A stretch of DNA of 64,000 nt, taken from positions 1 to 64,000 of IMG/VR virus record IMGVR_UViG_3300033074_001483, one strand, 5' to 3'. Numbering within the stretch: position 1 is the first letter of the stretch; each line of letters starts with the position of its first letter. Shown here piece after piece: positions 50,747 through 58,205 of this stretch. Made by a program: the position numbers and the translations under genes. This DNA is from a virus (Duplodnaviria; Caudoviricetes). The notes beneath the pieces were generated by a model, which did no database searches, had not been told where the DNA came from, and saw only the letters and a list, made by a program, of their open reading frames with translations.

Positions 50747-51017
50747 TTTGTAGGTACTTGTTGATGAACTCGGCAACCTGTTTTGCATGTTCTGGAGTTA
50801 CGATGATATTGTCTGCCCACGGGTTGCCCGTACGTAGGATATTCCAACACCATCGGATTCGTTCACGCCAACAGAGAGGTCGGGAAGGGGCGTGCTCCCA
50901 AATAGAAAACCAGAATTCGTCAGGACAATCTTTATTTGGCCAAAAAGTGACTTCAATGGCTTCGCCATGACATTCACACTTAACCATTAAGGACTGTTCT
51001 TTTAGTTCTTCAGGCAT
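50724..51017 (-). CDS. Hypothetical protein (CECH motif)
   Basis: Downstream of a TTGACA-17-TAAAGT promoter at about 51028-51056. Confidence 0.65.
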   Translation of the reverse strand: MPEELKEQSLMVKCECHGEAIEVTFWPNKDCPDEFWFSIWEHAPSRPLCWRERIRWCWNILRTGNPWADNIIVTPEHAKQVAEFINKYLQNGKTKEN

Positions 51018-51062
51018 TGTGCGAGAACTTTACCACGGATGTAACCTGTTGTCAAGTCCAAT

Positions 51063-51416
51063 TTACTGAGTCGGAGATGCAAAATTGGTCACGACTGATG
51101 GAGAACTCGCAGGGAGTTGAACAATGGCAGATTGATTAGTGCCGGTGCCAACTACATTGACGGCAAATGCTCGAAACTTGTAAATGAATCCGGGCTGGAG
51201 ATTTCTTACTACAGCAGAGTTAGTTGTGGACGGAACATACGTGATGTAAGTCCAATTCGTCACGGCAGGAATCTTTTGGTATTCAATTCGGTATCCAGTA
51301 ACCAGCTCGTGTGCTGGGTTTGGTGTCCAAGTGAAAGTTGCATTGTAAGATACAACTTGTGCAATGGCGACTGCCAAAGTTCCAACGAGTAGAATGGATG
51401 CGAGTAGTTTCTTCAT
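51063..51416 (-). CDS. Secreted single-FN3-domain protein
   Basis: Signal peptide MKKLLASILLVGTLAVAIA; FN3 pattern W.PNP...GYRIEY...NLQPGFIYKFRAFAVN. Confidence 0.75.
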   Translation of the reverse strand: MKKLLASILLVGTLAVAIAQVVSYNATFTWTPNPAHELVTGYRIEYQKIPAVTNWTYITYVPSTTNSAVVRNLQPGFIYKFRAFAVNVVGTGTNQSAIVQLPASSPSVVTNFASPTQ

Positions 51417-51432
51417 ACCTATAAATAGTTGT

Positions 51433-51780
51433 TTATTGTATCACCAGCCTAAAATCTTTTACCATACTTGGGAGACTTTGAGCATCTGATGGAGTTATTA
51501 CAGCTATCTCATTGCCGAGGTCGCCTTCTAATCCATTATATGCTTTCGCTCTTGAGGAAAGATAAAGTAAAGTATTTGGAGGTAGATTGGAAATTGTTGC
51601 ACTTGTCATATACCCGACATTGATTGAGTTAGTATAGTTTTGACTGGATGGACCATAGTACAAAACAAAACCCGCCGTATCATTAGTACTTCCTTGATAA
51701 GAAATGTTGACTTTCAAATCCGAAGCAAGTACAGCGCATACGGCGGCAATGCAACAAACAATGGCGAGTAGTTTTTTCAT
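51433..51780 (-). CDS. Secreted single-FN3-domain protein
   Basis: Signal peptide MKKLLAIVCCIAAVCAVLA; GFVLYYGPSSQNYTNSINVG...ISNLPPNTLLYL. Confidence 0.7.
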   Translation of the reverse strand: MKKLLAIVCCIAAVCAVLASDLKVNISYQGSTNDTAGFVLYYGPSSQNYTNSINVGYMTSATISNLPPNTLLYLSSRAKAYNGLEGDLGNEIAVITPSDAQSLPSMVKDFRLVIQ

Positions 51781-51785
51781 GAAAT

Positions 51786-51873
51786 TGGCGGATGGTAAGA
51801 GAATCGAACTCTTGCTCGGTTTACCGAGGCCACAGTTTTCGAAACTGGCCCATTACCTCTCTGGCAACCATCC
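51786..51873 (-). tRNA. tRNA-Ser(CGA), canonical 7/5 fold
   Basis: GGATGGT/ACCATCC acceptor, loop TTCGAAA, long variable arm, TTCGATT T-loop, G73, encoded CCA. Confidence 0.9.
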
Positions 51874-51924
51874 AAATTTTGACGGATAAGTGTGTTTTTG
51901 AAAATTTGTTTCATATTTATTTGT

Positions 51925-52638
51925 ATGAAACTTCTTATACCAATAAATACACTTGATAAATATAAAAGTCGTGATCAAATACCATTAGAATGTGAAATCT
52001 GTAAGATTACCTTTTATAGAAACAAAAATGATATTCAATGGGCATTGAAATGTAAAACCAAAAATTGTTTGAAGGTCTGTGGGAAAAAATGTCAACAGAT
52101 AATCAATGATAAACGTCTCACTCTTGAATGTTATCAGTGTGGAACTTCTATCAAACGACAAAGACAATCAATCGCCAAATCAAAATTCCAATTCTGTTCA
52201 AGCAAATGTTCCGCAACATATTGGAATTCTCACAAAACTTGGGGAAGTAATCGTTCCAAACTTGAAATGTGGATTGAACAACAACTCACTACTACATACC
52301 CCAACCTTCCCATTGAATATAACAAAACCGATGCCATCAATGCTGAGTTAGATATTTACATTCCATCTTTAAAACTTGCGTTCGAGCTCAATGGCATATT
52401 CCATTATGAACCCATCTTCGGGATAGACAAACTAAAATCATTCCAAACAAATGATGCTCGAAAATTCCAATCTTGTATGGAAAATGGAATAGGACTTTGT
52501 GTTATTGATACATCTTCAATAAAGTACTTCAAAGAAGAACGAGGAAAGAAATTCCTTTCGATAATCACCCAAATCATAGACAAGAAAGTGGCGGAAGGCA
52601 CAGAGCACGATTCTGATGCACATTTAAGGCACGTATAG
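51925..52638 (+). CDS. Putative homing endonuclease (Zn-finger repeats + Vsr-like nuclease), antisense within the tRNA array
   Basis: CEIC, CGKKC, CYQC, CSSKC; ELDIYIPSLKLAFELNGIFHY. CATATTTAT motif at 51912-51920. 3' end overlaps tRNA-Ser(GGA) on the opposite strand. Confidence 0.75.
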   Translation: MKLLIPINTLDKYKSRDQIPLECEICKITFYRNKNDIQWALKCKTKNCLKVCGKKCQQIINDKRLTLECYQCGTSIKRQRQSIAKSKFQFCSSKCSATYWNSHKTWGSNRSKLEMWIEQQLTTTYPNLPIEYNKTDAINAELDIYIPSLKLAFELNGIFHYEPIFGIDKLKSFQTNDARKFQSCMENGIGLCVIDTSSIKYFKEERGKKFLSIITQIIDKKVAEGTEHDSDAHLRHV

Positions 52639-52677
52639 ATTTCCAATCTATCCCCACACCTAGCAGGTTTACCTTCC
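52589..52677 (-). tRNA. tRNA-Ser(GGA), non-canonical 8/4 fold
   Basis: 8-bp acceptor GGAAGGTA/TGCCTTCC, 5-bp D-stem, anticodon arm ATAGA-TTGGAAA-TCTAT, long V-arm, 4-bp T-stem CAGA/TCTG with loop ATCGTGC, G73, CCA. Confidence 0.85.
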
Positions 52678-52679
52678 AG

Positions 52680-52855
52680 TTCTTGGCATAGTCTTATGGA
52701 AGTTTAATACCTAGACCATTTCGCCGTCATCGCTATCCCTCTTTAGGCTGGGAGACCTGTCATGGTCTTCGGGTGAACTTAACACCTTACTTATTGTCCA
52801 TGATTTCCCCGTGTGTCCACACTACGGGAGTTCATTTTTCGGTATTCCTGCTATG
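52680..52855 (-). ncRNA. Unassigned structured RNA (about 175 nt)
   Basis: Follows a promoter and boxA-like motif; no convincing ORF. Terminal CATAG/CTATG pairing, hairpin CCCGT-A-GTG-TGGA-CAC-ACGGG, TCCC/GGGA and GACCAT/ATGGTC complementarities. Confidence 0.5.
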
Positions 52856-52929
52856 TCAAAGAACTATAAATCTTCGAGCATAAATATAGCAGAAGTTTTC
52901 CAAGGATGCAAGAAAAAAGTTTAAGAAAA

Positions 52930-53253
52930 TTACTGTTTGAGTTCCCAGTGTAAAATATCGTGGCAATTACCACATAGAACTTTACACTTGGCAATTTCCA
53001 AAAGAATTCTCTCCTTACACCAGTTGTGTCGCCTGACAGCTGTGCTGACATCCAAATCTTTTTTGGAAGGATCGAGATGATGAAATTTGATTACTGCGGG
53101 ATGCTTGAAACCACATCCCTCACACTTCAATGTAGATTTGTAATCATCAAACCATTCAATGATTTCACGTTTGCGAGCATCAACACGTTTTCTATGGTGA
53201 ACTTTATTCTGTTCATACCACGACTTGTTTTGTTGTTTAGTGGCCATAGACAT
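52930..53253 (-). CDS. HNH endonuclease
   Basis: CEGCG...FHHLDP...CKVLCGNCHDILH. Confidence 0.9.
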   Translation of the reverse strand: MSMATKQQNKSWYEQNKVHHRKRVDARKREIIEWFDDYKSTLKCEGCGFKHPAVIKFHHLDPSKKDLDVSTAVRRHNWCKERILLEIAKCKVLCGNCHDILHWELKQ

Positions 53254-53288
53254 AAATATGTCTGAACCACAGAAAGAAGTTCAGAAAA

Positions 53289-53362
53289 TGGCTGGGACGG
53301 AAGGAGTTGAACCCTCACTGAACGGGTCAGAACCGTGTGTGCTACCATTACACCACGTCCCA
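53289..53362 (-). tRNA. tRNA-Gln(CTG)
   Basis: TGGGACG/CGTCCCA acceptor, loop TTCTGAC, TTCAACT T-loop, CCA. Confidence 0.9.
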
Positions 53363-53419
53363 GTAAAGCGGGGAAACCATATTTCAGATCGCCCCATCGC
53401 CTTGCGGCGAGAAGTAAAT

Positions 53420-53493
53420 TGGTGGAGCCACGGGGAATCGCACCCCGATCTCAAGTATGCCATACTCGTGTCCTACTGTTGAACGATGGCCCC
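53420..53493 (-). tRNA. tRNA-Ala(GGC), variant elbow
   Basis: G3:U70 identity pair, loop ATGGCAT, D-loop AACAGT and T-loop TGCGATT, CCA. Confidence 0.88.
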
Positions 53494-53747
53494 GACACCA
53501 AGGGGAAGTGCCCCTCGGGTGGATTCGCTACACCATAAGGTGCAGGAGTTCCGACGTTTTTTACAAGATTGTCTCAAACTTGTTCTCGGCAGAGGTCGCT
53601 AACTACAAAACTATGACCGCCTTGCCTTCTTGGAATTCTCCTAGAGCAGTGGACGGAATGACATTTTGTAATTCCCTCAGTCACCGAAAAGTAGCACGGC
53701 GTCTGGTGCGATTGTTGATGAAACATTTCGTACGCCGTTTGTTAAAT
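53494..53747 (-). ncRNA. Unassigned structured RNA between two tRNA-Ala genes
   Basis: String of stems: ACGGCGT/ACGCCGT, GGAATT/AATTCC, GGCA..GGTC/GACC..TGCC, ACAAG/CTTGT, TGCACC-TTAT-GGTGTA, CACC.GAGGGG-CACTT-CCCC.GGTG. No convincing ORF. Confidence 0.5.
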
Positions 53748-53822
53748 TGGTGGAGCTACGGGGAGTCGAACCCCGATCTGCGGCTTGCAAAGCCACCGTA
53801 TTACCGTTATACAGATAGCCCC
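53748..53822 (-). tRNA. tRNA-Ala(TGC)
   Basis: G3:U70, loop TTTGCAA, TTCGACT, CCA. Confidence 0.92.
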
Positions 53823-54149
53823 ATACTAGATGCCAGTTTTATACTCACTACGAGTCCCTTTCGGAGTTATGGTGAGCCCGGAGGCTCAATTATTGGTTGC
53901 AGTGTGCATCTATTTCTAAACACTTAATGTCCGTTTGGGTGTCACCCCACGCTCTTAGCCCGACAATTAGGCGGCTCGGTAGTCCGAAAGTTATGTTGAC
54001 AACATAACACACTCTTTAGCACAAGTGAATTGGAAATTGTTCTTGGGTTACAGGACTTATTGGCCAATGCCTACTCGCTCTCCATCATTCTAACCGGAGA
54101 TCATCCCGGCAGAGTATCAGCATCACGAGCTTGCTGAGAACAATTAAAT
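53823..54149 (-). ncRNA. Unassigned structured RNA (about 325 nt)
   Basis: AATTGTTCT/AGAACAATT closing stem, TCAGCA/TGCTGA, perfect GTTATGTT-GTC-AACATAAC, GAGCC-TCCG-GGCTC, TCC-GAAA-GGGA, TAGATGC/GCATCTA long-range pair. Confidence 0.6.
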
Positions 54150-54239
54150 TGGTAGCGGAAGTAGGAGTTACACCTACCATAGTTAGCAGTGCTAACGCAC
54201 GTTATGAGCGTGCTTGGCGTCTTCCGGCCTGTCCCCGCA
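54150..54239 (-). tRNA. Atypical CAU-anticodon tRNA with a long variable arm
   Basis: TGCGGGG/TTCCGCT acceptor (U1:U72 mismatch), GCACG-CTCATAA-CGTGC, inserted GTTAGC-ACT-GCTAAC hairpin, GTAGG-TGTAACT-CCTAC T-arm, A73, CCA. Confidence 0.75.
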
Positions 54240-54686
54240 ATAAATCTCAAAGAACTTTTGTCTGTACGACTGGCATTGAATACCTGTCCGTATCCGATGG
54301 CATTTTGCACATCTCACCGAACACTTTTCAATCTCCAATCTAATCTTATCCCACGAAAATCCTCTCACAAGCATTGCATACACGGCGTCTTCTTTTTGTG
54401 AAGGGTCTTCGTGATCAAAGTCTAATACTCGTATGTCTGTTTCCCCACAATCTACGCACGGATGTATCATCAAATACTCACACACTTTTTGCTGTGAGTC
54501 TGCCAGTCTGCGTTTCGTTCCTTTGTTTGAACGAGTGATATACTCCCGTCTATTCTGTTTGTAATGCTGTTTTACGTACTTCCCATGACACTCTTTACAT
54601 TCAGAACAACGAAGATTTTTCGCTTTATTTCGGAATGAGAAACACTCATCCTCTTTTGGCTTTTTACAAGTACAACATTCTCTCAT
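54192..54686 (-). CDS. HNH endonuclease with an N-terminal zinc finger
   Basis: CCTC...CSECKEC; CVDCG...LDFDHED...CSVRCAKCHRIR. Stop codon lies 48 nt inside the atypical CAU tRNA. Confidence 0.85.
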   Translation of the reverse strand: MRECCTCKKPKEDECFSFRNKAKNLRCSECKECHGKYVKQHYKQNRREYITRSNKGTKRRLADSQQKVCEYLMIHPCVDCGETDIRVLDFDHEDPSQKEDAVYAMLVRGFSWDKIRLEIEKCSVRCAKCHRIRTGIQCQSYRQKFFEIYCGDRPEDAKHAHNVR

Positions 54687-54739
54687 ACTCATAAATATCA
54701 TCGTGGAGTCAAAAACATCAAAGTATTTTGACTACAAAG

Positions 54740-54811
54740 TGGTTGCGGTCGCTGGAATCGAACCAGTCCCTCACCTTATGAGAGTGAGATGCACCATTAC
54801 AACTCCCCGCA
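54740..54811 (-). tRNA. tRNA-Met/Ile2(CAT), imperfect acceptor stem
   Basis: TCACT-CTCATAA-GGTGA anticodon arm, TTCGATT T-loop, A73, CCA; two mismatches at the base of the acceptor stem. Confidence 0.75.
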
Positions 54812-54813
54812 AT

Positions 54814-54870
54814 TCAAAGAACAATCTTACGTTCTGCCTATAAATATAGCAGGACTTTTGAAAATGTCAA
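54814..54870 (-). promoter_or_regulatory. Composite promoter (TTGACA...TATATTTATA) plus boxA-like GTTCTTTGA
   Basis: TTGACA-16-TATATT overlapping the TATTTATA motif, then TGTTCTTTGAA immediately before the tRNA. Confidence 0.65.
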
Positions 54871-54881
54871 GCCTCCACGAA

Positions 54882-55064
54882 TTATTTTATTCGGTCCTGA
54901 ATATCCTTGGAAGTCAAAGATTTCAATGCTTCCCGGTCCTCTTTTTTGAGGCGATTTACCAAATACCCCGGCTTTTTCGGACCAGTACCCAATGCGGCAT
55001 GAAGAAGCAAACTATCAAAAACTTCTTGTGCTCGGCGTCGTTGTCGTCTAGTCAGTGATGACAT
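54882..55064 (-). CDS. Small basic hypothetical protein
   Basis: MSSLTRRQRRR..., start overlapping the coaD stop. Confidence 0.5.
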   Translation of the reverse strand: MSSLTRRQRRRAQEVFDSLLLHAALGTGPKKPGYLVNRLKKEDREALKSLTSKDIQDRIK

Positions 55065-55503
55065 ATTTTCGGTATTCCTCGGGAGAAATTTTTTCAATTG
55101 CTCTCAATGCGCTGGAACTGATATGTCTCAAATTTGGATTGCAATAAAATGCAACAATCTTGACATAGGGTTCCATACTTCTCAGAAATGCAACGAAATT
55201 TTGTTCGTATTCCAAATCTGCACCGCTGCGGAGTCCACGAACAAGTGTTACATCGTAATCCAAATTCCTTTCAAGACCCCGAATGTAATCGGAAAGTAAT
55301 CCCCCGAATTCATCACTATCCACATCCATATCTTTCAAGAAATTAACAGGAAGAGGGTGAGTAGAAAGTGGTTTTTCTGGATTAACACCACGAGCAACAA
55401 TCACTTTGTCAAAAACTTTAGTTGCCTGTTTGACAACATCTAAATGCCCAACGTGAAAGGGGTTGAACGAACCGGCGTAAACTCCAACTTTTAGTTTGCT
55501 CAT
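55048..55503 (-). CDS. coaD: Phosphopantetheine adenylyltransferase
   Basis: YAGSFNPFHVGH, LVRGLRSGADLEYE and HISSS motifs. Confidence 0.85.
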   Translation of the reverse strand: MSKLKVGVYAGSFNPFHVGHLDVVKQATKVFDKVIVARGVNPEKPLSTHPLPVNFLKDMDVDSDEFGGLLSDYIRGLERNLDYDVTLVRGLRSGADLEYEQNFVAFLRSMEPYVKIVAFYCNPNLRHISSSALRAIEKISPEEYRKYVITD

Positions 55504-56099
55504 ACTTTTACGATTAGTGCTTTATAACTCGGCAAACCCTTGACTCCCATCAATGGTACAATCTTCTCGGGTTTATCTTTGAAAAATTCATCTGTGGCAA
55601 CTTTTGGTCCGGGCCACAAATCCGTTCCGTAATCATCTATCAATACCACTGCACCTTTTTCCAGATGATTGTATATCAATCTTAATGCCGACTCAGTACT
55701 TGTTTTCAAATCACCATCAAGATGTGCGAATGAAATCTTTAACGGAATGTCGGATTCGGTCAACTGTTCAAACCATCCTTTATGGATAATTGGGATAGGA
55801 ACATTATACGATCTGAATGTCAATAGAAAAGACTCTACCGAACTTGACATTTCTCCACCATGACCTTCAGCCCTTGGCAATCCCATAAAGCTATCATAAA
55901 CATGAACGGGACGATTTGTGAGAGCATTTATCATTCTGGCAGTGTAACCCTCATGACATCCAAACTCAACTACATCACCTTCCAAATGCTCGGTTTCCAT
56001 GACATAATGGCAAATGTGTACTATCCGTGAAAAGTCCTGCATTCCAATACAGGACTTCAACATTGTGGCAAGTTTTTGTGATAATGTTTCATCAAACAT
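55500..56099 (-). CDS. TylF/MycF-family SAM-dependent O-methyltransferase
   Basis: LEGDVVEFGC, VYDSFMGLP, KGWFE, FAHLDGDL and GAVVLIDDY motifs. Confidence 0.85.
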   Translation of the reverse strand: MFDETLSQKLATMLKSCIGMQDFSRIVHICHYVMETEHLEGDVVEFGCHEGYTARMINALTNRPVHVYDSFMGLPRAEGHGGEMSSSVESFLLTFRSYNVPIPIIHKGWFEQLTESDIPLKISFAHLDGDLKTSTESALRLIYNHLEKGAVVLIDDYGTDLWPGPKVATDEFFKDKPEKIVPLMGVKGLPSYKALIVKV

Positions 56100-56100
56100 A

Positions 56101-56487
56101 TTACCACCATAGATGTCGGAACCACTCGGCAAATAATTCTATTCCCGCTTCATAGCGTTTCCAGTTTTTGTCTTGTTCTTCGGCAGTAAGTTTTGAATAC
56201 TTTTCGTTTTCATGATTAAGAGACCAATCAAATGCAAAAATCATTTCGTCCAAGTAATCATCCCATTGTTTAGAAGTCAACTGGCCGGGGAATCCCATAT
56301 TGACTTCTTTGAAGCGAATAAGTCGTGGAAGAATAAACTCCGCAATCACCGAATCCAGACCCCAAGTTTCAGCATCCGAAAACCCTTGGGTTTTCAATTG
56401 TCTAAAATGCTTTTTGTATCGTTTGTCGGTTTTCTCAAGGTATAATGGTTCTTTGAGAGACCAACGACTTGTTAGTTTTTTGCTCAT
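56101..56487 (-). CDS. Hypothetical protein
   Basis: 128-aa ORF in the operon, ending in LFAEWFRHLWW. Confidence 0.65.
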   Translation of the reverse strand: MSKKLTSRWSLKEPLYLEKTDKRYKKHFRQLKTQGFSDAETWGLDSVIAEFILPRLIRFKEVNMGFPGQLTSKQWDDYLDEMIFAFDWSLNHENEKYSKLTAEEQDKNWKRYEAGIELFAEWFRHLWW

Positions 56488-56939
56488 AGTGATGCATATA
56501 GACGACGAAATGCTGCTTCTTCATCCCACGTTCCTCCTGTCAGAACCTCGATACATCTTCCATGTGGGAGTTCAAAATCTGGAACATGATACTTTTCTCT
56601 TCCTCGGATTTCTCCTGTGAAAACATGAATTTCAACAACATCATTTCGTGAACCTTTGAATTCTTCTCGAACATCACGATACGGATTAACTGTTGACACA
56701 ATGACATCAATTCCTTGATCTGCTATATGTGCTACAAACCGTTGGAGAGCACGAGTCTGTTCAATACGATATTCTTTGGTGAAATTTTCAGGTTTGTCGT
56801 AAGGAACAGCAAAGATTTTTCGGAGGTTATCACCATCAAGATGGAGAACTGCTGAACCTTTGGCACGCAATTCAGAAGCGAGTCGTTTTGCCAATGTAGT
56901 CTTGCCACAACCGGGTTGTCCTATAAACCAGTAAATCAT
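56484..56939 (-). CDS. cysC: Adenylylsulfate kinase-like P-loop kinase
   Basis: WFIGQPGCGKTTLA, LDGDNLR, VIVSTVNPYRDVRE; shorter than typical CysC. TTGACT-16-TATAAT promoter upstream (about 56946-56973). Confidence 0.7.
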   Translation of the reverse strand: MIYWFIGQPGCGKTTLAKRLASELRAKGSAVLHLDGDNLRKIFAVPYDKPENFTKEYRIEQTRALQRFVAHIADQGIDVIVSTVNPYRDVREEFKGSRNDVVEIHVFTGEIRGREKYHVPDFELPHGRCIEVLTGGTWDEEAAFRRLYASL

Positions 56940-56981
56940 GCCGTTATTATAGCATGGATACTATTGAAGTCAAGTGGAAAG

Positions 56982-57055
56982 TGGTGGAGCTAAAGGGAAT
57001 TGAACCCTTATCTTCGCAGTGCGAGTGCGATGTCCTGCCGTTGAACGACAGCCCC
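56982..57055 (-). tRNA. tRNA-Ala(CGC)
   Basis: G3:U70, TCGCA-CTCGCAC-TGCGA, TTCAATT, CCA. Confidence 0.92.
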
Positions 57056-57437
57056 ATTCGGGCAACTTGTCAGTCACCCACGATGTTACTCGTTATCCAA
57101 ACCTATTTCTACGAGCTGCACGTAGATGCCAGTCTTGACCCTACCTCGGAACCTCGGTCAATCCTATAGCACGTTACTACAACAAAAGCCGCCGTTCCGC
57201 AGCGACGTGTCAGTTTAGAAATTCGGTGCTCATGGTCTGCTTATAGTACTCTGGAGGTCTCGCAGAAGCCCTGACCCAGACACGAGCAAAATATCGTTTG
57301 CAGATCGTATCGTCGAACGATACGCTGTGCAAACGGAAAAATGGTGAGATGGGCAGTGCAAACTGCTTTCTACAGGGGGGACGGCACCACGTCTGTCCCT
57401 TATGGAGTACTCCTTTCGGGACGCCCATCTCATTCTG
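57056..57437 (-). ncRNA. Unassigned structured RNA (about 380 nt) between RNase P RNA and tRNA-Ala(CGC)
   Basis: GAGATGGGC/GCCCATCTC multibranch domain, GTTTGCA..CGTATCG-TTCGA-CGATACG..TGCAAAC hairpin, TGCTC.GTG.TCTG/CAGA.CAT.GAGCA, TTGACC/GGTCAA, CTACG/CGTAG. Confidence 0.6.
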
Positions 57438-57728
57438 TTTTTGTCGCAGCCGTAGCCGCAATTCTGTTCTATCTCTACATTTTTCTCAAGGTCAACCATA
57501 CGGTTGCCAAGTCCCTCACGGGATGCCTCAACCCGGGCTTTACAATGGGAAGCACTACCCTTTGCCCTGTTTGAGTTGCTGTTACTTTGTGGTGTTAACG
57601 AATGGTTTGCCCACGGTCAAGAGGGCGTCGGTAAAGACCCATTCTCCCAAACAGCTGCTTTACAGTTGCGAACTTCCTCTGGTTGCTCCTGTTCAGGCGG
57701 AACCAGCGTAGAGTCGCTTACGACAAAA
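57438..57728 (-). ncRNA. rnpB: RNase P RNA (compact, about 290 nt, reduced specificity domain)
   Basis: Manually mapped on the bacterial consensus: P1 TTTTGTCG/CGACAAAA, P2 CTCTAC/GTAGAG, P3 CTGGTT/AACCAG, P4 AG(T)TCGCAA/TTGCGGCT with bulged U after GAGGA and ACAGAA before the 3' strand, P5 CTGT/ACAG, J5/15 CAA, P15 CTCA/TGAG with L15 GGGT, P16 GGGC/GCCC, P6 AAGCA/TGCTT, P18-like hairpin. Confidence 0.88.
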
Positions 57729-57731
57729 TTC

Positions 57732-57775
57732 TCAAAGAACTGGTGGTACGATACCACACTTCGTCAAAATGTCAA
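57732..57775 (-). promoter_or_regulatory. Sigma70-like promoter plus boxA-like motif for the rnpB operon
   Basis: TTGACA-16-(TGG)TATCGT, then AGTTCTTTGAG 3 nt before P1. Confidence 0.6.
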
Positions 57776-57780
57776 CCTTT

Positions 57781-58137
57781 TTATGGGATGACTGCACCTT
57801 GCCCCGGTGCTGGAGGGGGAGTAACCACTGGTGGAGTTACAACTGGAGGCGTAACCACTGGTGGTTGAGTATTGACTCCTGTTTTATTCTCCAAAAATCG
57901 TCTTGCTGTATAAGTTCCACAGAGGACCAGAGTTACATAAACATATGGTTCTGGTACATCGGCAAGTTTGTCCGTTTTGAAAGTGACGTATCCGATAAGT
58001 GTCATAAAGAACACCATCCATATGAGAAACATCAGTCCTGTGCGGGACATTCTTCCTCGGTGGTCCAAGAGTAGTTCGATTGGTTTTGCCATATGTGATA
58101 AAAGTTGGTGCTGCCTATCAGATTCGAACTGATACAT
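57781..58137 (-). CDS. Two-TM membrane protein (holin-like) with a PPVVT-repeat tail
   Basis: Two hydrophobic helices and C-terminal (PPVVT)x3. Confidence 0.5.
   Translation of the reverse strand: MYQFESDRQHQLLSHMAKPIELLLDHRGRMSRTGLMFLIWMVFFMTLIGYVTFKTDKLADVPEPYVYVTLVLCGTYTARRFLENKTGVNTQPPVVTPPVVTPPVVTPPPAPGQGAVIP
57820..57866 (-). repeat. Three tandem 15-nt repeats encoding PPVVT
   Basis: Plus-strand ggagtaaccactggt/ggagttacaactgga/ggcgtaaccactggt. Confidence 0.8.
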
Positions 58138-58205
58138 TCTACCTTCTCAGGGTAGCGACTCCTTCCAGTTGGTCTAAGGCAGCGTTTGACTATCTATAAA
58201 TAGTT

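Follow-up and report, generated by a model that had tools for sequence, protein, structure and literature searches.

A phage family of CAU-anticodon tRNAs with a hairpin in the variable region and a putative initiator-type identity

A 90-nt tRNA gene with a CAU anticodon and a long, base-paired variable arm is located on the minus strand of a contig from a huge uncultured phage, and comparison with its relatives makes it close to certain that this gene encodes a real, selected tRNA belonging to a phage-only family. Judged from the sequences of the gene and its homologs, the tRNA has a somewhat better than even chance (roughly 0.55) of being a methionine-accepting, initiator-type phage tRNA to which an arm has been added. 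By the textbook rule, only the Leu, Ser, Tyr, and Sec tRNAs have long variable arms, and few known RNAs are as strongly conserved as the initiator tRNAs. A phage family that is itself conserved and that has such an arm on an initiator-type acceptor and D stem would show how far the initiator scaffold can change naturally.

The long CAU tRNA gene and its neighborhood

The window, that is, the whole stretch of DNA that was analyzed, covers positions 1 to 64,000 of an IMG/VR virus record that is 85.5 kb long, has a G+C content of 41.9%, and is estimated to be 24% complete. The window encodes baseplate, tail-fiber, and SbcCD-like proteins. With default settings, 40 tRNA genes are called in the contig. 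All of them lie at 51.7-78.8 kb in minus-strand orientation, and none (0/40) has a CAU anticodon. The CAU tRNAs of the contig are three in number: the long one described here, a short partner, and a third at G000:C1:78856-78929, beyond the window. The features that are relevant to the long tRNA are the following.

54150-54239, minus strand: complete gene of the long CAU tRNA (90 nt), with the CCA encoded
54233-54239, minus strand: 5' strand of the acceptor stem, positions 1-7, with U1 opposite U72
54216-54232, minus strand: A8-C9-A10 linker and D arm; 3-bp stem (11-13/22-24) with G11-C24, 8-nt loop
54197-54213, minus strand: anticodon arm, with CAU at 54204-54206
54182-54196, minus strand: hairpin of the variable arm, with a stem of 6 bp and a loop of 3 nt, which follows position 43 immediately
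54178-54181, minus strand: four unpaired bases, UAUG, from the variable arm to the T stem, found in 42/42 family members
54161-54177, minus strand: T arm; 5-bp stem and 7-nt loop UGUAACU, in which G55 and U56 replace U55 and C56
54150-54160, minus strand: 3' strand of the acceptor stem (66-72), A73, and encoded CCA
54192-54701, minus strand: HNH homing-endonuclease gene between the two CAU tRNAs (phrog_2255, E = 4e-28, residues 5-154 of 169)
54740-54811, minus strand: short partner CAU tRNA, 72 nt; U1-A72, U11-A24, and mismatches G6·A67 and G7·G66

The sequence-only reading had described a 90-nt cloverleaf with a CAU anticodon, a 6-bp hairpin, U1·U72, A8, A73, and the T loop given above, and every detail was confirmed on the minus strand. 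The anticodon arm has a perfect 5-bp stem (27-31/39-43) and a 7-nt loop in which position 33 is U and position 37 is a purine. The stem includes A29-U41, C30-G40, and G31-C39, and the three consecutive G-C pairs are absent, as had been claimed; equally correct was the observation that the 72-nt CAU tRNA at 54740-54811 begins with the same 8 nt. The variable region of 19 nt is of class II length (more than 10 nt, with a stem-loop), and the 7-bp acceptor stem contains two G·U pairs in addition to the U1·U72 mismatch. The elbow bases that are conserved in tRNAs generally (G18, G19, U55, C56, and U8-A14) are absent: A8 and C14 occupy the positions where U8-A14 is standard, and D-loop bases 4 and 5 are A and A, which covary with T-loop positions 55-56. 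All other parsed tRNAs of the contig have U8 except Phe. The minimum-free-energy fold is the same cloverleaf with an energy z-score of -1.7, which is not significant alone; because the folding energy is unremarkable, the case for the long tRNA rests on comparison.

The gene escapes routine annotation. It is missed by ARAGORN in a default run and by the Rfam tRNA model RF00005 when searched at the locus up to E = 10 (the gathering threshold of 29 bits is not reached), and only at a relaxed threshold does ARAGORN call both neighboring CAU tRNAs, with exactly the ends first read from the sequence. At the same locus and E value limit, the short CAU tRNA matched only the tRNA-Sec model of Rfam, at 18.5 bits. 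Even for members with a canonical elbow (L006:10776-10864 and L023:10038-10120), the Rfam tRNA model gives no hit at E <= 0.01, while the homologs in L006, L007, and L008 are called by ARAGORN at default settings. Routine annotation would overlook the whole long CAU family, and huge phages that seemingly lack Met or fMet tRNAs may encode them, since the Rfam tRNA model misses the family.

The HNH reading frame enters the long tRNA by 48 nt, with its last 16 codons and stop inside the tRNA. Because the stop lies within the tRNA, cutting at the 5' end of the tRNA would yield a non-stop HNH message. The insertion is present in the window and in L001 and absent at this position from L006, L010, and L013, where the CAU tRNAs lie 6-30 nt apart. 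The idea that the two CAU genes are halves of one tRNA split by the HNH gene was considered and rejected, as both are intact and adjacent in relatives without HNH.

The short partner keeps its G6·A67 and G7·G66 mismatches and has a 4-bp T stem flanked by A·C. Homologs are present in L006 and L009, and compensatory changes are seen in its anticodon and T stems in L001, L006, and L009, including three double changes in the anticodon stem relative to L001. By this comparative reckoning the short gene is a real but irregular tRNA, and it may be an Ile2 or elongator Met species. The third CAU tRNA (G000:C1:78856-78929, minus strand, 74 nt) has an elongator-like acceptor, G1·U72, U11-A24, and a rebuilt T loop, GGCAGAA, and is missed by ARAGORN even at relaxed settings.

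Several further tRNAs of this phage depart from the textbook form. Variable-region hairpins are also present in tRNA-Arg(ACG) (G000:C1:74745-74829), tRNA-Asn(GUU) (72360-72455), and tRNA-Lys(UUU) (70456-70544), all on the minus strand, so that in this phage an extra arm occurs on other tRNAs as well as on the CAU tRNA. In tRNA-Arg(ACG), a GNRA-capped 3-bp stem is followed by AUAU, which is the same module as in the CAU family. Conversely, tRNA-Leu(GAG) at 58106-58183 (minus strand) measures only 78 nt, with a 5-nt variable loop, and looks like a class I tRNA; a second tRNA-Leu(GAG) at G000:C1:70255-70338 has a short arm.

Within the tRNA array lies an operon (55048-56939, minus strand) for a CoaD-like cytidylyltransferase, a TylF-like methyltransferase, and an APS-kinase-like protein, whose position is kept in relatives. 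The TylF-like neighbor has no close relative among viral contigs, and the CoaD-like gene, located 240 nt upstream of the short CAU gene, served instead to find relatives; it has 289 homologs, many of them on contigs of 50-360 kb.

Homologs, covariation, and the elbow

A covariance model built from the long tRNA (R1) recovers homologs in L013 (101.6 bits), L011, L008, L010, and L006, with a range of 55-101 bits and E values from 1e-13 to 1e-26. These homologs sit directly downstream of the CoaD operon, and the gene order Ala(CGC), CoaD operon, CAU, CAU, Ala(UGC), Ala(GGC), Gln(CUG) is common to all five. The closest relative, L001, has a CoaD that is 92% identical and an unchanged copy of the long tRNA; divergence of the flank begins a few bases past the CCA. 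A pattern of fixed length was derived from six homologs, using their D arms and the 5' halves of their anticodon arms; it matches 23 viral and 53 metagenome loci, and the family totals 42 distinct sequences from the viral and metagenome collections. The 36 pattern-derived sequences were preselected for purine 11, pyrimidine 24, G31, and C39, so that only the six homologs found with the model provide independent evidence at those columns.

No match to the family pattern occurs in 185,579 prokaryote genomes, and the window's own anticodon arm and T stem, searched as an exact pattern, gave no hit in viral contigs. Among cultured phages, no blastn match was obtained with the window's copy of the tRNA, only partial matches to ordinary tRNA-Met and none of full length with the copy of one relative, and only tRNA-Ala by megablast of the 7 kb from 51000 to 58000. 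A complete relative of 297 kb (G001, the record of L020) encodes 36 tRNAs, four of which are CAU tRNAs and two of which are tRNA-Ile(UAU). Related huge phages also encode a tmRNA (G001 107795-108185; L023:1678-2077).

In the model-based alignment, 96% of the cells are paired and both sides change in 20 of 25 pairs. The covariation score of 0.514 compares with 0.154 for shuffled alignments (0/500 reach the observed value) and with at most 0.162 when the partners are slid. Compensatory changes occur in all five helices, the variable arm included, and affect four of the five anticodon-stem pairs. An independent MAFFT alignment of 22 long-arm members, analyzed by RNAalifold, returns the same cloverleaf and variable helix, with 15 of 22 pairs compensated. 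The long tRNA and its L013 homolog differ at 17 positions: 15 are in stems, two are in the 25-26 linker, and none are in loops, and the stem differences amount to seven compensated pairs and one change from G·U to G-C.

All 42 members have a hairpin in the variable region, followed by the same four bases, and the stem ranges from 2 bp with a GNRA tetraloop (in the 83-nt forms) to 7 bp, in a variable region of 12-22 nt; 14 of the 42 have only the 2-bp GNRA mini-hairpin. Both sides change in all six modeled pairs, and 25 distinct stem sequences occur among the 42 members. An early expectation had been that a recent degenerate copy would have homologs without the hairpin insert. The homologs keep the insert, which speaks against such a copy.

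Covariation also accounts for the odd T loop. D-loop bases 4-5 and T-loop bases 55-56 occur in three combinations, GG/UC (23 members), AG/GC (10), and AA/GU (9), with zero exceptions in 42; the T-loop columns were left free by the search pattern. Expressed as 18:55 and 19:56, these states correspond to G18·U55 with G19-C56, A18·G55 with G19-C56, and A18·G55 with A19-U56, the last being that of the window. As the elbow bases covary across the 42 sequences, the contact between D loop and T loop appears to be kept, and the odd T loop is, on this comparative evidence, a compensated elbow. The replacement of G19-C56 by A19-U56 together with A18·G55 provides natural covariation evidence for the elbow contact. 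Elsewhere in the contig, tRNA-Ala(GGC) (53420-53493, minus strand) and tRNA-Arg(GCG) (G000:C1:74596-74670, minus strand) have A in place of G18, together with G55, and thus the A18/G55 state that is seen in part of the CAU family. Taken at the level of the alignment, the long tRNA is one that folds to the normal L-shape, with a rebuilt elbow and with a hairpin projecting from the variable region.

Initiator-type marks and competing readings

The sequence-only reading had offered an initiator or Met variant as one option, and this option gained support, because the family has the acceptor and D-stem marks of a formylatable initiator tRNA. At 1:72, the 42 members have U·U (16), U-A (13), A-U (6), C·A (4), A·A (1), C·U (1), or G·A (1); the pair is never G-C or C-G (23 mismatches and 19 A-U/U-A), while pairing in the rest of the acceptor stem reaches 98.9%. 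No variation is seen at G2-C71 or C3-G70 (47/47 alignment rows), and A73 is found in 38 of the 42 members. Position 11:24 is G11-C24 in the window and A11-U24 in most relatives, with purine11:pyrimidine24 in 6/6 homologs found without the pattern constraint, whereas pyrimidine11:purine24 is found in all remaining tRNAs of the contig that have a standard 4-bp D stem, among them the short and the third CAU tRNA. Recognition by the formyltransferase has been ascribed to the 1:72 mismatch together with 2:71 and 3:70 (PMC5389676) and to the 1-72 mismatch together with R11:Y24 (PMC9976931). Among the CAU tRNAs of the contig, only the long one combines an unpaired 1:72, G2-C71, C3-G70, purine11:pyrimidine24, and A73. 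In one member (L087), C1·A72 and the three G-C pairs of the anticodon stem occur together with an acceptor stem that resembles the one of E. coli tRNA-fMet, and these features point to descent of the family from a bacterial initiator.

The proposed sequence of events is as follows. The long tRNA would be transcribed within the minus-strand tRNA array and would bring its own CCA. As its anticodon is CAU, which alone is sufficient for E. coli MetRS (PMC9976931), host MetRS is predicted to charge it with methionine. Being the sole CAU tRNA of the contig with all formylation marks, it would then be formylated by the host formyltransferase and would act as the initiator tRNA of the phage. Fmt genes were not found in G001, the only complete record, and IF3 and MetRS genes were not found in G000-G004, of which only G001 is complete; host enzymes would consequently have to act. 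The variable-arm side of a tRNA is the face left exposed by class I synthetases. The added arm would lie on this face and, by the same reasoning, would probably be clear of the formyltransferase; it may stabilize the unusual core (A8 and C14 for U8-A14), or it may be a handle or a shield.

A more far-reaching version, which we regard as doubtful, makes the molecule a phage-private initiator: arm, core, and elbow would preserve its use by MetRS, Fmt, and the ribosome, yet would let it resist defenses directed at initiator tRNA (e.g., VapC-type anticodon-loop nucleases) or would mark it for a phage factor. If this were true, the phage could keep starting translation once the host initiator tRNA is destroyed, and the combination of hairpin and UAU in tRNA-Arg(ACG) and tRNA-Asn would belong to a wider restyling of phage tRNAs. 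An arm that shields the tRNA from host nucleases or makes it orthogonal would also be useful for engineering orthogonal initiation.

The relatives encode further CAU tRNAs. In some of them, a second CAU tRNA with purine11:pyrimidine24 has a D arm resembling the one in E. coli tRNA-fMet (L018:4775-4851 and L022:7256-7330), and this gene could, by its sequence, be the true initiator of those phages. A type with an enlarged D arm (~22 nt) and an initiator-like acceptor is found at L008:11003-11084, L013:4530-4607, L009:5313-5395, and L082:5402-5479. A second long-arm CAU type of 86-87 nt, with a 4-bp variable stem, U·U at 1:72, and A11-U24, occurs at L046:1124-1210, L080:785-871, L054:1813-1899, and L003:10543-10628 and co-occurs with the mini-hairpin form. 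With a second initiator-like CAU or long-arm type present in some relatives, the family does not always provide the sole initiator-like gene.

The alternative that survives best, although it is an unlikely one, is that of an elongator Met tRNA, which would read internal AUG codons and in which the weak 1:72 and the arm would be lineage quirks of an initiator-derived ancestor. EF-Tu accepts A-U or U-A at 1:72 in other tRNAs, and 19 of the 42 members have one of these pairs. The nearby CAU paralogs all have the same acceptor sequence, so that the latter may reflect ancestry and not function, and the existence of another fMet-like CAU tRNA in some relatives points the same way. So does the anticodon stem, as the three G-C pairs are present in only 3 of the 42 members and the middle pair is inverted in 18; the au/GC/GC form seen in 7 of the 42 does occur naturally in alpha-proteobacteria (PMC5389676). 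Against an elongator, 1:72 is mismatched in 23 of the 42 members in a stem that is otherwise almost fully paired, and none of the contig's other tRNAs that have a standard D stem shows purine11:pyrimidine24. Moreover, the third CAU tRNA of the contig, described above, already offers an elongator-like acceptor together with U11-A24, and elongator-Met-like CAU tRNAs are also present in relatives (L038:5748-5824 and L046:1498-1573).

It is improbable that the gene encodes a tRNA-Ile2, in which host TilS would convert C34 to lysidine and the tRNA would read AUA as isoleucine. AUA makes up 12.5 of every 1000 codons in the contig, a tRNA-Ile(UAU) was not found there, and the number of CAU tRNAs is exactly three, all of which would suit an Ile2 species. 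Yet G001 keeps the long CAU family despite its two tRNA-Ile(UAU) genes, and a phage TilS was not found in that record. The acceptor end of the long tRNA resembles fMet and not Ile2, with U·U at 1:72 in place of a stable pair, and a separate Ile2-like CAU tRNA (L082:8446-8522) is encoded in a relative that also has the family.

Less credible still is a non-translating tRNA-like RNA, be it a decoy for an enzyme that attacks initiator or Met tRNAs, as had been suggested at the outset, or an RNA with a role in regulation or priming. The unusual core (A8 and C14), the extra arm, and the failure of the Rfam tRNA model would be compatible with such a molecule. Selection, however, keeps far more than a decoy needs: not just the anticodon arm with its canonical loop but the whole L-shape, including the 7-bp acceptor stem, A73, CCA, and the compensated elbow.

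Another early suggestion, a mis-sense tRNA that LeuRS, SerRS, or TyrRS would charge through the long arm and that would place another amino acid at AUG, has become very improbable. A class II-length variable arm and A73 are indeed present, and class II bodies with foreign anticodons do exist, namely the allo-tRNAs and the nematode nev-tRNAs. The length of the arm is not conserved, however, as it ranges from 2 to 7 bp and is reduced to the mini-hairpin in 14 of the 42 members, and its geometry of 0 unpaired bases before and 4 after the stem is unlike that of the phage's own tRNA-Ser (3/1) and tRNA-Leu. The resemblance to Leu identity that had been noted holds for A73 and the long arm and fails in the core, where A8 and C14 replace the U8-A14 pair that E. 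coli LeuRS needs. TyrRS, for its part, reads the GUA anticodon. E. coli tRNA-Ser has G73, which differs from A73 of the long tRNA, and CAU drives charging by MetRS (PMC9976931).

Finally, a decaying pseudo-tRNA left by duplication or HNH insertion, which might be suspected from the failure of default finders, the non-canonical T loop, and the abutting and overlapping HNH gene, was rejected as barely conceivable in view of the syntenic homologs, the covariation, the compensated elbow, and the identity of the gene in L001, where CoaD is 92% identical.

Comparison with known systems

A full-text literature search found no described phage CAU or initiator tRNA with a long variable arm, and a review of non-canonical tRNAs lists Ser, Leu, and Tyr as class II and contains no CAU or phage case (PMC7609411). 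The putative initiator-type tRNA described here is best compared with three groups of known molecules.

The first group is bacterial tRNA-fMet of the E. coli metZWV/metY type, with which the long tRNA shares the CAU anticodon in a C-U-CAU-A-A loop, the unpaired or weak 1:72, G2-C71, C3-G70, purine11:pyrimidine24, A73, and a nearly identical acceptor sequence. It differs from tRNA-fMet in its A8 and C14 (not U8 and A14) and its 3-bp D stem, and the family differs in a hairpin variable region of 12-22 nt instead of 5 nt. Most family members furthermore lack the three G-C pairs, and the subgroup of the window has the A18·G55 and A19-U56 elbow.

The class II tRNAs (Leu, Ser, Tyr, and Sec) form the second group and have the base-paired variable arm and the 3-bp D stem in common with the long tRNA. 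In contrast to them, the long tRNA has a CAU anticodon and an arm that follows directly after position 43 and is succeeded by four conserved unpaired bases, and the arm of the family varies from 2 to 7 bp and is often GNRA-capped. With acceptor and T stems of 7 and 5 bp, the long tRNA is also unlike the tRNA-Sec/allo-tRNA fold (8/4, 9/3, or 9/4).

The third group consists of the allo-tRNAs of bacteria and the nev-tRNAs of nematodes, which, like the long tRNA, combine a long arm with the anticodon of a class I family. Those molecules have a Ser or Leu body that is charged via the arm and give rise to mis-sense decoding, whereas here the body is initiator-like and the anticodon is the main element for MetRS.
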